A program made the position numbers. Positions 24,001 through 30,000 of a stretch of DNA of 64,000 nt are shown here, piece by piece; position 1 is the first letter of the stretch, and every line of letters starts with the position of its first letter. The stretch is from the IMG/VR virus record IMGVR_UViG_2718218396_000003. One strand, 5' to 3'. Source of the DNA: a virus. Its lineage: Duplodnaviria > Heunggongvirae > Uroviricota > Caudoviricetes.

Positions 24001-27000
24001 AAGGTGTCAGCTACATACCATACAAAGATATCGTTGGCGTATGGACTGTATGTCACGGACACACCGGAAAAGACATCATGCCCGGTAAAACGTATACCGA
24101 AGCAGAATGCAAAGCCCTCCTGAATAAAGACCTTGCCACGGTCGCCAGACAAATTAACCCGTACATCAACGTCGATATACCGGAAACAACGCGCGGCGCT
24201 CTTTACTCGTTCGTTTACAACGTGGGCGCTGGCAATTTCAGAACATCGACGCTTCTTCGCAAAATAAACCAGGGCGATATCAAAGGCGCATGTGATCAGC
24301 TACGGCGCTGGACATACGCTGGCGGTAAGCAATGGAAAGGGCTGATGACTCGCCGCGAGATTGAGCGTGAAGTCTGTTTGTGGGGGCAACAATGAGCAGG
24401 GTAACCGTTATTATCTCCGCTCTGGTTATCTGCATTATCGCCTGCCTGTCATGGGCTGTTAATCATTACCGTGATAACGCCATCGCCTACAAAGAGCAGC
24501 GCGATAAAGCCACATCCATCATCGCTGATATGCAGAAGCGGCAACGTGATGTAGCAGAACTTGACGCCAGATACACAAAGGAGCTTGCTGATGCTAATGC
24601 GACTATCGAAAGTCTCCGTGCTGATGTTTCTGCTGGGCGTAAGCGCCTGCAAGTCTCCGCCACCTGTGCAAAGTCAACGACCGGAGCCAGCAGCATGGGC
24701 GATGGAGAAAGCCCAGGACTTACAGCAGATGCTGAACTCAATTATTACCGTCTCCGAGGTGGAATCGACAAGATAACCGCGCAGGTTAACTACCTGCAGG
24801 AGTACATCAGGACGCAATGCCTGAAATAATTTTTTTTGCAAATCACAAAGTCCATTTAATGAGCCTCGCGATGCGGGGCTTTTTGCAATAAATGCGTACC
24901 GCAACGCATGTTTTTTACACCGAACCTGCCCCTTTGGAATGGGCCTTTGAGGATACCAGTTAGTGCTGGCGAGCCTCGGTGGGCTGGTTTCCTGTGCGGC
25001 AAAGGTTCATTTCAAAGAGTAGGTACACGCTATGAAATCATTAACCCTCTTCAATCAACCAATCCGTATCGGTGAAGATGGCATGATCTGCCTCACTGAT
25101 ATGTGGAAAGCCAGTGGTAAAAGTGAATCTGAATCTCCGTACCACTACCTGCGAAACAAGCAGACCAAAGAGTTCTTGGCTGAGCTGGAGAAAAACCACG
25201 AATCTGTGGTTTTTACGGAACGCGGTGCGCACGGTGGAACTTATGGCGGAAAGTTCGTTGCTTATGATTACGCAGCATGGCTAAACCCCGGATTTAAATA
25301 TGCAGCCTATAAAGTCCTCGATGATTACTTCACCGGAGAGCTTCATCATCGGAACAGCTTAAGTGCGCAGCTCAACATGAAATGTCATGAGTTTGATCAG
25401 AAAAAAGACATGGCGAGCTTCTGTGGACAAGGCCTCGCGGCATGGCGCTACACGAAACCTGGTTTGATCGCTGAAATTAACTCCCTGGCTAACCAGTTGC
25501 AGATTTCGATCCCCGGGCTTCCGGGATGAGTGATCGTGTCATTGAATGCGCCTCCAGAGCGGGGCGCGACTTCTCAGAGTTCATGAAAGGCGAGAAGGGT
25601 ATGATGGAAGCATTGGCCTCGGTGGATGAGTTTGGCGAGCAGCTGCGCCTCAACGGCTGTGTCAATCATCACTTTGTTAGCTACATGATGCGGAACTCGA
25701 TCATGCAGGCATTCATGGACATGGCAAAAGCCGAGAGGAAAGAAGAGCGCCGGCGTAAGCGAGCGGAAGCAAAAGCGAAGTAGCCATTACAAAGCCCATC
25801 TACTGGTGGGCTTGATAATGGCTTATACCCTACACGGGATAACTTAACTGATATCCCTTTTAACGGATAAAGGTATTCAAGCCTGACACATCATGCGCTG
25901 TATCGTCGCTGTATTTCCGCATTAACCATGACCGTAGCCCGACGGGGAATTCCTTCTGCGCGAGTGTGCGGGGATAATCAAAAACGATACACACCGGGGT
26001 TTACCGCGTAAACGGAGCGCGGCGTTCTCCCCTCATGGTCGCCCGTCCGGTGCGATGGTGGAAGAAACTGGAATCTGTTCAATAAAAAAACTGCCGTGTT
26101 GGAGTCACAGCAGTAATGTACTGATTGGGTAGAAGATTATTATTGTTATGCTTTATTTTTATTCTATATGGCTGATTATTTCAATTCGGAATTAATACAG
26201 CTAATGTCTGTGATTTTTTATAAATTCAGCAATATAAAGAAATAGTTATATGAACAGCCATCGCAGAGCATACTGTGTATCATTCTTTTTTATAGTCAAC
26301 TGACGGGCATATTTTATGTCTGCTGCCAGCTCCCGGCGGCAAGATTCAATGACCCACGCAGAAAAATTTTCTGAACCTTTCTGGTCAAGAGCGATGTTAA
26401 TTTGTTCAATCATCTGGTTTGGAAATCGGATGTTGCGGGTTGTTGTTCTGCGGGTCCGGTTTTTCGATGACATTTTCTTTCCTCTGGTGACAAGTTATAT
26501 GGCGAGGATTTTACATGGCTGTGCTTCGTACGTTACCGGGCAGAATCAAAACTCTGAACACCCGGCGGGTGAATGTCCTGAAGGGTGAACAGCGTCGTGT
26601 CAGTGGCAGTGCCCGGGTTTCCCTCAAGCGTCGTATCTGGCTCAGGGATGCCGGACAGTGCTGTCTCTGTGGGCGTGTGGTTGACCTTTGTGACAGTGAA
26701 CTCGATCACCGCATTGCACTTCAGTTCGGTGGTGGTAATGAGGAGACGAATCTCTGGACGCTCTGTACTGAATGCCATCGCCAGAAGTCAGTCAGTGAAA
26801 CGGCGAGTGGTATGCCGGACCCGACGCTGCCGGAGGTGTCCGGAGGTCATGGCAGGGCAGACGATATCATCGGACTGTGACCCGCCCTGGGGGGGGGGGA
26901 TCATCCGGCGAAAAAACGATCGCCCCGGACACCGCCCCCCGTCTCACGCAGAGAAAAAATTCCCGTTTCAGGGCAGTTAACATGTTAACTGGCTGTCCGG

Positions 27001-30000
27001 GCATTTTTGCGGTTTTTATCTTTATTATTCAGTTTGTTGTGCGGAAAAAATGTTAACTGGCTTTTTCAGCAAATGTTAACCAGGCAGCAGTTAACATTTG
27101 CGGCATGAGACGCCGGGAAAAATGGGCTGAACCATACCCGGCTGAGTGCGTTCTGGACCCGGGAGGAGGCTGTGCTGACAACGCAAAAACGAAAATTTGC
27201 GCTGGCGCTCATGTCCGGGAAAAACAAAACAGCGTCAGCCATTGCCGCCGGTTATTCGGCGAAGACCGCCAGGGTTAAAGGCTCGCAGCTGGCAAAAGAT
27301 CCGGAGGTGCTCGCGTTTATAGCCCGTAAACAGTGCGAAACGGTGGAGGTGGATGAGGTTCCTGTTTACCGGCAGAAAAAATCAGAGCAGGAGGATAAAC
27401 CCCGTCGCCGTGAGGTGGCTGCAATACCACAGCCGGACGAAAAAAATCCGGAGATGCCTCCGCCCGCGGTGATATCTCATGGTATTGAATATATGGAGGA
27501 TGGTCTTCCCGATCCGGTGAAAGCGATGGGGCGTCTTCTGGTGGAGAACATTAATACCGACCCCAGGCTGGCGCTGGATGCGGCTTATAAGCTGGCGCAG
27601 TTCACGCACCACAAAAAAGGGGATGCCGGTAAAAAATCGGCAAAAGGTGACGCGGCGAAAAAAGCGGCTAACCGTTTTGCGGTGCCACCACCACCCCGCC
27701 TGGTGGTGAATAATGATAATGAGGGCAACGGATGATACCTGTGTGGAGCACGGCCTGCCCGGACTGGGCAGAGCGCCTGAAAAAGGGGCTGTCGATTATT
27801 CCGGCTCCGATTTATCCGGAGCAGGCCGCACATGCCCTGGCGATTTTTAAACAACTGCGGATTGTGGATGCACCGGGCAGCCCGACGTTCGGGGAGTCCT
27901 GCGCACAGTGGGTGTTTGACCTGGTGGCGGCCCTGTTTGGCTCCTACGATGCGCAGACCGGTGTACGCCATATCAAGGAAGTTTTTATCCTTATCCCCAA
28001 GAAAAACAGCAAGTCCACGCTGGCTGCCGGGATCATGATGACGGCGCTGTTACTGAACTGGCGGCAGGCGGCGGGCTACACCATTCTGGCCCCGACCGTG
28101 GAGGTGGCGGCTAACGCCTTCAACCCTGCCAGGGATATGGTACGACGGGACGATGATCTGGATGACCTCTGTCAGGTGCAGACACATATCCGGACCATCA
28201 CCCACAGGGTGACGGACACCACCCTGAAGGTGGTGGCTGCCGATCCGAATACGGTATCCGGTATCAAGTCCGTGGGGACGCTGATTGATGAACTGTGGTT
28301 ATTTGGCAAGCAGTACAAAGCGGAGGACATGTTACGTGAAGCCATAGGCGGCCTTGCCTCCCGCCCGGAAGGGTTTGTGGTGTATACGACCACCCAGTCG
28401 AATGAGCCGCCAGCCGGGGTGTTCAGACAGAAACTGCAGTACGCCCGGGATGTCCGTGACGGCAAAATTCATGATCCGCACTTTCTGCCGGTGATTTTTG
28501 AGCATCCTCCTGAAATGGTGGAAAGCGGGGCTCACCTGCTGATGGAAAACCTCGCCATGGTTAACCCGAATCTCGGTTATTCGGTGGATGAGGCTTTTCT
28601 GTACCGGGAGTACCGTAAAGCCCGGGAGGCTGGTGAGGAAGCATTTCGTGGCTTCATGTCAAAACATGCCAATGTGGAAATTGGTCTTGCCCTGCGTTCT
28701 GACCGCTGGGCGGGTGCGGATTTCTGGGAGCAGCAGGGCAGGCGCGTCAGCCTGGACGATATCCTGCAGCGCGCTGATGTGGTGACGGTGGGGATTGACG
28801 GCGGGGGCCTGGATGATCTGCTGGGAATGTACGTGATTGGCCGTGACAGGGAAACCCGCGAATGGCTGGGCTGGGGCCATGCCTGGGCGCATGAAACCGC
28901 GGTGGTCCGACGGAAGAGCGAGGCGTCCCGGTTTCAGGATCTTGTTGCCTGTGGAGATATGACCATTGTCCGGCGTGTCGGGGATGACACGGCGGAAGTG
29001 GCGGAATATGTGCGTCGCATTCATGAGGCTGAGTTACTGGACCATATCGGTATTGACCCGTCAGGGGTGGGGCAGATTCTGGATTCACTGGCGGAAGCCG
29101 GGATCCCCGACGGAATTGTGGTGGGGATAAGCCAGGGCTGGAAACTGGGCGGGGCCATTAAAACCACCGAGCGCAAACTGGCTGAAGGGGTGCTGGTGCA
29201 TGGTGACCAGCCCCTGATGGCCTGGTGTGTCGGCAATGCCCGGGTGGAGCCTAAAGGTAACGCCATTCTTATCACCAAACAGGCCAGTGGACGGGGAAAA
29301 ATTGACCCGCTGATGGCGCTGTTCAATGCGGTCTCCCTGATGTCCCTTAACCCGGAACCGAAAAAGAAAGAATATGCGGTTTTTTTCATATAACCCTGTT
29401 CACACTGTAACCATCATGAACCGCTGCGGCGGTTTTTTTATTTTCAGGAGGCTGATGTGACTCTTAAACGGGCCTGTTCCCTGCTGACGGTGAAATCCTT
29501 CAGTGAGGATGAACGGGTGATCACCGGGATTGCGTCAACGCCTTCTCCGGATCGGGATGGTGACATCCTGGAGCCGGAGGGCGCGGAGTTTGGCAGTGCG
29601 ATCCCGTTTCTCTGGCAGCATGACCATTCCCGCCCGGTGGGGCAGTGTACGGTGCGCCGGGTCAGCGAAGGGCTGGAAATCACGGCAACACTGGTGAAGC
29701 CCGTACCGGATATGCCGTCGCAACTGGCTGCCCGGCTGGATGAGGTCTGGGCGGCCATTAAGACCGGGCTGGTCAGGGGGCTGTCCGTGGGCTTCCGTCC
29801 CCATGAATACACCTTTCTGGACGGAGGCGGACTGCATTTTCTGCGCTGGGAACTGATGGAGGTGTCTGCCGTCACCGTGCCCGCGAATGCGGAATGCACC
29901 ATCCGGACCATTAAATCTTACGACCGCCCGTTTTCTGCCGCGTCCGGCAACCGGAAACCGGTGGTGAAAATCGCATCTTCTGCCGGCGCTGCGGCACAGT

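Follow-up and report, generated by a model that had tools for sequence, protein, structure and literature searches.

In the Stx1 phage Lys8385Vzw, PhageTerm analysis indicated packaging from a cohesive-end (cos) site with 3′ cohesive ends and placed CGCCCCCCCT at the genome end (PMC7946995). The Acinetobacter phage fEg-Aba01 has a 10-nt 3′ end, CGCCCCCCAT, which was established by PhageTerm and by gel analysis after heating and slow cooling and was termed 'HK97 type' (PMC7354433). In HK97 the small terminase subunit (TerS) binds, via its central tunnel, one A-tract site of 15 bp, at +15 to +29 (PMC11331095). Here we analyzed the corresponding region of a 64,000-nt stretch of Caudoviricetes DNA (IMG/VR record IMGVR_UViG_2718218396_000003), hereafter referred to as the window. 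The region of interest, 26881–27171, lies between an HNH endonuclease gene (26515–26880) and the genes for the two subunits of the terminase, small and large (terS, 27172–27735; terL, 27732–29393). A first-pass annotation of the window had proposed it as the likely packaging recognition region. This proposal is supported both by the gene order and by the physical ends of a 98%-identical phage, which map inside the region. We consider it very probable that 26881–27171 is a cos site that is cut at 26933–26942.

The cut site and its surroundings

Lys8385Vzw is 98% identical to the phage in the window, with large terminase subunits (TerL) that are 98.7% identical. The Lys8385Vzw record ends with ...GGACACCGCCCCCCCT and restarts with CTCACGCAGAGAAAAAATTCC... 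/ CTCACGCAGAG. This break aligns base for base with the junction between ...GGACACCGCCCCCCGT and CTCACGCAGAG... in the window, i.e., with 26942/26943, and the window equivalent of the mapped 10-mer is therefore CGCCCCCCGT at 26933–26942. fEg-Aba01 is distant (TerL 52% identical, the TerS match confined to residues 2–50). Its record ends with ...GGACACCGCCCCCCAT, the last 10 nt being annotated as a 3′ cohesive end. An identical GGACACCGCCCCCC context is shared, GGACAC-CGC is common to the window and fEg-Aba01, and the core common to all three phages is GGACAC-CGCCCCCC(C/G/A)T. The reading of the region as a packaging site in the first-pass annotation is supported, and the C6 run is present (26935–26940). 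That reading needed refinement as to the place of cleavage, which by homology is at this C-run, mentioned by it in passing, and not at the G-run or the palindromic repeats. The elements of the region and the genes around it are as follows (coordinates, strand, description, basis).

26515–26880, plus strand: HNH endonuclease gene, 121 aa, putative cos-cleavage accessory nuclease (Pfam PF01844, E 2e-6; PHROG 589, E 6e-42)
26889–26899, plus strand: G11 run, candidate cosQ-like or terminase/HNH positioning element, upstream cos (comparative)
26900–26932, plus strand: conserved 33-nt segment from the G-run to the cut (ATCATCCGG, A-tract, CGATCGCC, GGACAC) (lineage comparison)
26933–26942, plus strand: cosN equivalent CGCCCCCCGT, predicted 10-nt 3′ cohesive end, holding the C6 run (homology to Lys8385Vzw and fEg-Aba01)
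26943–26965, plus strand: post-cut element CTCACGCAGAGAAAAAATTCCCG, with an A6 tract 12–17 nt past the cut (26954–26959) (conservation)
26974–26991, unstranded: sites 1 and 2, 18-bp palindrome CAGTTAACATGTTAACTG formed by two inverted ATGTTAAC half-sites (sequence)
26992–27049, unstranded: spacer of 62% A+T that contains T-tracts at 27004, 27013, 27021 and 27033 (8–12 nt apart)
27050–27059, plus strand: site 3, ATGTTAACTG (sequence)
27069–27101, unstranded: sites 4 and 5, inverted repeat GCAAATGTTAAC-N9-GTTAACATTTGC with 12-nt, 100% complementary arms
27172–27735, plus strand: terS, 187 aa, GTG start, Shine-Dalgarno sequence GGGAGGAGG at 27161–27169 (Pfam Terminase_2)
27732–29393, plus strand: terL, 553 aa, HK97-class (Pfam TerL_ATPase PF03354 and TerL_nuclease PF20441)

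Among 95 unique relatives (TerS identity above 92%) the 10-mer is polymorphic: CGCGCCCCCT was found in 43, CGCCCCCCGT in 30 and CGCCCCCCCT in 13, and there are six 9-nt variants that lack one C. Since the 10-mer varies in this way, probably not every base of the overhang is read by the nuclease. The polymorphism implies that variation in overhang sequence, and possibly also in overhang length, is tolerated. Two IMG/VR draft E. coli contigs end in this region, one 5 nt past the cos 10-mer and the other inside the G-run (L024, L038); such ends could stem either from linear phage DNA present when the culture was sequenced or from the assembly breaking at the homopolymer.

On the upstream side, TCCGG, AAAA, GATC and GGACAC within 26900–26932 are invariant across diverged lineages. 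The post-cut element is kept in all relatives, including those from Burkholderia and a satellite-like island described below, and occupies the position of the HK97 TerS site. A direct repeat, 75% identical, connects the two flanks at a distance of 43 bp, with TCATCCGGCGAAAAAA following the G-run (26901–26916) and TCACGCAGAGAAAAAA following the C-run (26944–26959); a weaker version is present in an Enterobacter prophage. The two copies may represent an A-tract recognition element on each side of the cut. Scans of the region for promoters, terminators and structured RNAs gave nothing above chance, and Rfam gave no match at E ≤ 1. A 24-codon hydrophobic open reading frame at 26982–27056 (MLTGCPGIFAVF...) was considered as a gene and rejected, a sister locus (L133) having 14 unrelated codons there.

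The phage in the window belongs to the 1717/2851/BP-4795/phi330 group of Stx-converting siphophages (genus Pankowvirus). Over 1.4 kb surrounding the site it is 100% identical to phages Stx2a_F349, Stx2a_WGPS4 and Stx2_5044, 99.9% identical to phage 1717 and 97% identical to phages 2851 and BP-4795. The cos region (321 bp) was found in 1,244 of 5,426 complete E. coli genomes (23%), in up to 8 copies per genome; its carriers include Stx1a, Stx2a and Stx2c converting phages, and often several prophages of one cell.

The repeat array and TerS

Five closely spaced GTTAAC copies had been noted by the first-pass annotation and are present, at 26976, 26984, 27052, 27075 and 27090; they make up 5 of the 15 GTTAAC hexamers in the window. 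The octamer ATGTTAAC occurs at all five sites and ATGTTAACTG at four of them. In the window ATGTTAAC is found five times (1.65 expected per 64 kb), always within 26976–27097. The Poisson probability of five copies in one such 122-bp stretch, corrected for position, is about 1e-12. The palindrome formed by sites 1 and 2 is perfect, as the same annotation had it, and is 18 bp long instead of 16. The array extends from +32 to +159 relative to the cut and lies upstream of terS, the place taken by cosB in lambda. The T-tracts of the A+T-rich spacer and an ATTCA..TGTT block within it are conserved across lineages, which is compatible with an intrinsic or IHF-type bend, for which the spacer is a candidate.

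In about 60 unique intergenic sequences of the GTTAAC type the five cores are invariant and the flanks variable. These close relatives are very similar to one another, so that invariance of their sites is by itself weak evidence. A sister lineage of E. coli prophages (L133, L134 and L139; TerS P0022 and P0031, 68–74% identical) is more informative: the architecture is the same and five GTTTAC or GTTTAT sites occupy the same positions. There the palindrome becomes TATAAACATGTTTATA, site 3 becomes ATGTTTATAC or AAAAATGTTTATACCC, and sites 4 and 5 become AAAATGTTTAC-N9-GTAAACATTT with an invariant GGCAGC spacer. The five sites thus changed in concert, which neutral decay could not produce; this implies a single reading factor with an altered specificity. 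A scan with the 14-mer AAACATGTTTATAC gave contigs that were largely unrelated, and the combined analysis revealed neither another motif type nor another GTTTAY-type locus.

TerS itself appears to be that factor. Its N-terminal domain is a helix-turn-helix (HTH) of the SF6/SPP1 G1P type, with profile matches to 4ZC3, 3ZQQ and 2CMP. In the AlphaFold model the predicted local distance difference test score (pLDDT) exceeds 90 for residues 1–56, with helices at 19–25 and 33–41, and Foldseek superimposed the model on 4ZC3 with a template modelling (TM) score of 0.84 and a root mean square deviation of 1.6 Å at 30% identity. According to the model, the recognition helix has residue 32 as its N-cap and residue 35 in its first turn. 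Comparison of loci gave the following.

GTTAAC loci (window, L131, L141): TerS residues 30–37 A/E-KTARVKG; HNH protein identity to the window 100%, 95%, 78%; TerL identity 100%, 99%, 88%
GTTTAY locus (L133): TerS residues 30–37 E-KSARCKG; HNH protein 79% and TerL 97% identical to those of the window

Site type is therefore separated by TerS residues 32 and 35 and not by overall HNH or TerL identity. It was also predicted from TerS sequence before the loci were retrieved. All three predictions were correct, with P0031 (S32/C35) associated with GTTTAY and P0037 and P0011 (T32/V35) with GTTAAC. Among 70 unique intergenic sequences retrieved independently of the motif, KTAR[V/I]KG was accompanied by 4–6 GTTAAC in 58 and KSARCKG by five GTTTAY in 2, with zero discordant cases. 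A TerS search of species-representative genomes gave no match, and an alignment-based search of viral contigs gave close relatives only. We conclude that the ATGTTAAC repeats are likely a cosB-like set of TerS-binding sites, as judged from this covariation.

A shorter arrangement is found in Salmonella phage FSL SP-016 and, among the matches listed, in prophages of Enterobacter, Kosakonia, Citrobacter, Atlantibacter, Buttiauxella and Entomohabitans. The spacer between the HNH gene and terS is about 106 nt in this short type, and a single inverted repeat, at the same distance from the cut, overlaps the start of terS. In the example GTAAAC-ATG-TTAAC, ATG-TTA-ACA encodes Met-Leu-Thr. The window palindrome is homologous to this repeat; the window lineage has an extra ~190 bp with sites 3–5 and a new start, GTG-CTG-ACA, that still encodes M-L-T. 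The non-coding left half-site of the short type, among the matches listed, is GTAAAC or ATAAAC with S32 and GTTAAC with T32 (Citrobacter, Entomohabitans); at the coding right half-site, Entomohabitans has GTTTAC. From this half-site pattern and the extra ~190 bp, the array appears to have expanded from one TerS site in the ancestor.

The core and the repeats are separated from each other in a ~9-kb island of E. coli GCA_012987925.1 (contig AATOBA010000003.1; L142:3446–11944, also L135 and L136). It encodes an integrase and an AAA_25 primase-helicase, together with a homolog of TerS (46% identical) and a protein of 307 aa that matches the capsid half of the protease-major capsid protein fusion of the window; no TerL, HNH or portal genes were found in the ~20 kb examined. 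The cos core of the island is G7-...-GGACACCGCCCCCCGT-CTCA, with a 10-mer identical to that of the window. Downstream it has its own direct repeat, two copies of AAAAGTTACAC, instead of ATGTTAAC. A shared core combined with its own TerS and repeats fits a core that is read by the TerL and HNH proteins of a helper and repeats that are read by the island's own TerS. The island is probably a satellite parasitising the terminase of the window family.

The G-run upstream of the cut

The G11 run starts 9 nt past the stop codon of the HNH gene (TGA, 26878–26880). It is the sole homopolymer longer than 8 in the 64-kb window, where about 0.1 runs of G11 or longer are expected by composition. We examined whether the run could be an assembly artefact, a concern raised together with its first description. 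This is not so, since the same G11 is found in independent near-identical records (Stx2a_F349, WGPS4, Stx2_5044, 1717 and E. coli strain 319). The suggestion that the tract is a slippage hotspot was borne out by sequence records of the 95 unique relatives, in which its length varies from G5 to G13 with a mode of 7–8, so that G11 belongs to the upper tail. The Sanger-sequenced relative phi330 has G10 and Lys8385Vzw has G7. The distance from the 3′ end of the run to the 10-mer is 33–35 nt across the same 95 relatives.

The run was also found far outside this group. A genome scan with the core pattern gave mostly chance matches in GC-rich Actinobacteria, 9 matches with a G-run being informative among the matches listed. 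In every distant core carrier examined, again among the matches listed, G6–G8 is present at the same offset; the carriers include prophages of Kosakonia, Citrobacter, Buttiauxella, Enterobacter, P. putida and Pseudoxanthomonas. Relative to the terminus, the run is placed as follows.

HK97: G9, ATCAAATC; run end at −42 from the terminus
Window: G11, ATCATCC; run end at −43 from the predicted terminus
fEg-Aba01: G6; run end at −44 from the terminus
Xp10: G5; run end at −45 from the terminus (taken from the deposited record)

The Xp10 terminus, GGACAGTCT, is presumed from the deposited record, a related paper confirming COS (3′) for the genus only. The chance of a run of G5 or longer ending within a 4-nt interval is about 0.003 per phage. 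The fixed position in the window family, HK97, fEg-Aba01 and Xp10 suggests a role in cos, and the G-run is probably a functional part of it, given conservation of its position in distant HK97-type cos sites. That it is functionally required is slightly more likely than not. No mention of the element was found in the HK97 packaging papers examined.

A two-fold symmetric or cruciform cos core, with the G-run and C-run as outer arms, was considered and dropped for the window, the DNA fold z being −1.5 for the window and about 0 for HK97 and fEg-Aba01. In the last 61 nt of Pseudomonas phage vB_Pae_CF53a (L267), G8 and C8 do form the outer arms of a near-perfect inverted repeat that spans 53 nt. 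With 24 bp paired and a DNA fold z of −11 it is the only significant case, more symmetric than the window's.

The G-run is also the place of an insertion. In LC567822 PPompW_132418 and six similar records (L002:1546–3004), the IS110-family element ISEc20 is inserted in it, leaving GGGGG. These PPompW prophages lack the segment from the tRNA genes downstream of Q to the G-run, the HNH gene included, and keep cosN, the five sites and terS/terL. With its gene missing, HNH would be needed in trans.

Alternative readings, mechanism and comparison with known systems

Several points weigh against the interpretation developed above. The termini were transferred by homology, and the predicted 10-mer of the window is one base off each mapped relative. 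Because the repeats adjoin the 5′ end of terS, the two would be correlated to some degree through co-inheritance alone; the motif switch amounts to only about 2–3 independent evolutionary events, and Entomohabitans, with T32, carries a mixed GTTAAC/GTTTAC pair. HK97 TerS binds a single A-tract site right past the cut, and the A-tract element at 26943–26965 could likewise be the primary site for TerS or the terminase. The system can do without five sites, given that the short-type relatives package with one palindrome. For the G-run, length polymorphism indicates relaxed constraint on exact length, the argument for its role is purely comparative, and complementarity with the C-run yields no significant structure in the window (z = −1.5, as above).

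Four other explanations were weighed. Headful (pac) packaging, with the repeats as a pac site in place of cos, draws on the DNA-binding domain of TerS, whose SF6/SPP1 G1P type occurs in pac phages, and on the resemblance of multiple repeated boxes and bent DNA to SPP1 pac, which reportedly consists of several short repeated boxes on intrinsically bent DNA. We regard it as hardly credible, because Lys8385Vzw (98% identical) is a cos phage with 3′ ends according to PhageTerm, the core identical to that of the window gives annealable cohesive ends on a gel in fEg-Aba01, and TerL is HK97-class with an HNH gene adjacent. The G-run taken singly might have no packaging role and be only a sequencing artefact or a neutral homopolymer prone to slippage. 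Its drift between 5 and 13 among close relatives, the draft contig that breaks inside it and the ISEc20 insertion in the PPompW prophages all speak for this, but at least 5–6 G are retained at a fixed offset in HK97, Xp10, fEg-Aba01, P. putida and Pseudoxanthomonas despite near-complete divergence of the surroundings, where chance would place such a run at about 0.003 per phage. The satellite, which retains only the cos core, retains the run too, and G11 recurs in independent records, with G10 in the Sanger-sequenced relative. We therefore find neutrality of the run unlikely.

The remaining two explanations accept cos and concern the repeats. They could be operators of another DNA-binding protein, a host factor or the DUF3950 protein (75 aa, PHROG 949) encoded divergently on the minus strand just upstream of the HNH gene (26246–26473), and serve in regulation of terS or late genes. 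The GTTAAC-type loci that were examined have a DUF3950 gene upstream and the GTTTAY-type L133 has none, so that this gene co-varies with site type in a small sample; the overlap of the short-type palindrome with the terS start is also a position typical of regulators. DUF3950 as the binding factor is, however, weakened by short-type phages (FSL SP-016, Enterobacter) that have the palindrome and no DUF3950 gene within 1.5 kb. The repeats are separated from the DUF3950 promoter region by 500 bp and one gene, the scan for promoters gave no signal above chance, a host factor is unable to explain a lineage-specific concerted change of five sites, and the residue changes that track the motif sit in the TerS recognition helix. 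Regulation by such a protein is accordingly quite improbable. Slightly more improbable still is that the repeats are non-functional relics, decaying copies of the ATG-TTA-AC start of terS duplicated with the ~190-bp insertion. In the short type the start of terS (M-L-T) is ATGTTAAC itself, with the palindrome at the homologous position, the window type has the extra ~190 bp with the new GTG-CTG-ACA start, and a weak repeat, GGCTGTCCGGGCA and GGCTGTGCTGACA, links the old and new start positions. Relics would be expected to decay independently, yet the 8-mers are invariant as flanks diverge, and all five changed to one motif in the sister lineage. Two copies are inverted, the non-coding left half of the ancestral palindrome is conserved, and the 24-codon reading frame that starts from 26982 is not.

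A cos site bound by TerS at the repeats would operate as follows. Late in infection TerS would recognize concatemeric DNA, its SF6/SPP1-type HTH domains occupying the five ATGTTAAC half-sites. The palindrome, the single site at 27050 and the inverted pair at 27069–27101, arranged around a probably bent spacer, would be assembled into a cosB-like nucleoprotein complex that places TerL and the HNH protein at the conserved core immediately upstream. Staggered nicks made by TerL/HNH on both sides of CGCCCCCCGT would then generate 10-nt 3′ cohesive ends, as shown in the 98%-identical phage and in the phage with the same core. Packaging would proceed rightward from CTCACGC... through terS and end at the next cos, approached from the G-run side. 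In the weakest step of this scheme, the G-run, which ends 43 nt before the cut and whose length drifts by slippage, would most likely serve as an upstream cosQ-like element read by TerL/HNH or by the translocating motor. As a whole, the explanation that combines a cos site of an HK97-class, HNH-assisted terminase, a Pankowvirus-type Stx prophage and this mechanism is the best available and, in our judgement, probable.

The kind of element is well known. Because the cut site is already mapped in a near-identical phage, novelty is limited to sub-site anatomy, where the co-varying array of TerS sites and the conserved G-run appear to be undescribed. Taken jointly, the proposals that a G-run ~43 bp upstream is an unrecognized, deeply conserved element of HK97-class cos sites and that the TerS helix and the half-site array form a modular specificity pair are tentative, and we would not yet bet on both. 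If true, the G-run would be a cosQ-like termination or positioning signal in phages ranging from HK97 and Stx phages of E. coli to those of Xanthomonas, Acinetobacter and Pseudomonas. With T32/V35 replaced by S32/C35, the terminase would switch its target from GTTAAC to GTTTAY, and co-resident prophages (with up to 8 cos copies in an E. coli genome) and the satellite could partition or hijack packaging. Both the role of the conserved G-run and the two-residue TerS specificity switch are testable hypotheses for the HK97 model. Knowledge of the cut and of the sequences read by the terminase allows one to define prophage ends, to predict cross-packaging of co-resident prophages and satellites, hence mobilisation of stx genes and islands, and to design cos-based transduction or detection tools.

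The gene content (HNH, Terminase_2 TerS, PF03354/PF20441 TerL, a prohead protease-major capsid protein fusion and portal) includes two further observations. Within 27732–32970 the order is terL, the 645-aa fusion and portal, the usual HK97 order being terL, portal, protease, capsid. Past the portal gene, a 407-aa open reading frame (32967–34190) contains four near-identical tandem repeats of ~45 aa (…ITPDDVRPMLEQMVKEAVSHIPVPRDGRDYDPDVLQKAVNDAVA.IPVPADGKS…).

The locus resembles HK97 in the order HNH, cos, terS, terL, with the HNH gene directly upstream of cos/terS, as gp74 is in HK97. The HNH protein is marginally similar to gp74 (E 0.078); TerL shares its Pfam class with HK97 gp2 (BLASTP 23% identity, E 6e-11) and is 47–60% identical to TerL of Xp10-, Bcep176- and fEg-Aba01-type cos phages. 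Further likeness is seen in the 10-nt 3′ ends that start with CGCC (HK97 ...GACCGCCGCCAAA; window ...CACCGCCCCCCGT, predicted by homology), in a G-run followed by ATCA that ends 42–43 nt before the terminus, and in an A/T-tract shortly past the cut. In contrast, TerS of the window has an SF6-type HTH and no similarity to gp1; gp1 reads one 15-bp site (PMC11331095), whereas the window has a five-site array reaching +159; and terS starts 229 nt past the cut compared to 50 nt in HK97. Lys8385Vzw and fEg-Aba01 share the core, the 10-nt 3′ ends and a G-run that ends 43–44 nt before the terminus; the papers on them report the 10-mer only, with the G-run and the TerS-site array undescribed, and cos is not discussed in the phi330 paper.

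With lambda the locus shares the tripartite layout (cosQ, cosN and cosB with R3, I1, R2 and R1) before the small terminase gene and repeats that are interrupted by a bend and read by small-subunit HTH domains, binding and bending being putative for the window. Lambda differs in its 12-nt 5′ overhangs, in having no HNH partner and a defined IHF site, and in gpNu1, a winged-HTH TerS of another family (TerS of the window matches Pfam Terminase_2 only); there is no sequence similarity between the two. In SPP1/SF6, the DNA-binding domain of the G1P small terminase is the closest solved homolog (4ZC3/2CMP/3ZQQ), but packaging there is headful, with one imprecise cut at pac and terminally redundant DNA, compared to a precise cos, an HK97-class TerL and an HNH protein in the window system. 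The element is thus best described as an HK97-class cosN/HNH/TerL module joined to an SF6-type TerS and a cosB-like array.

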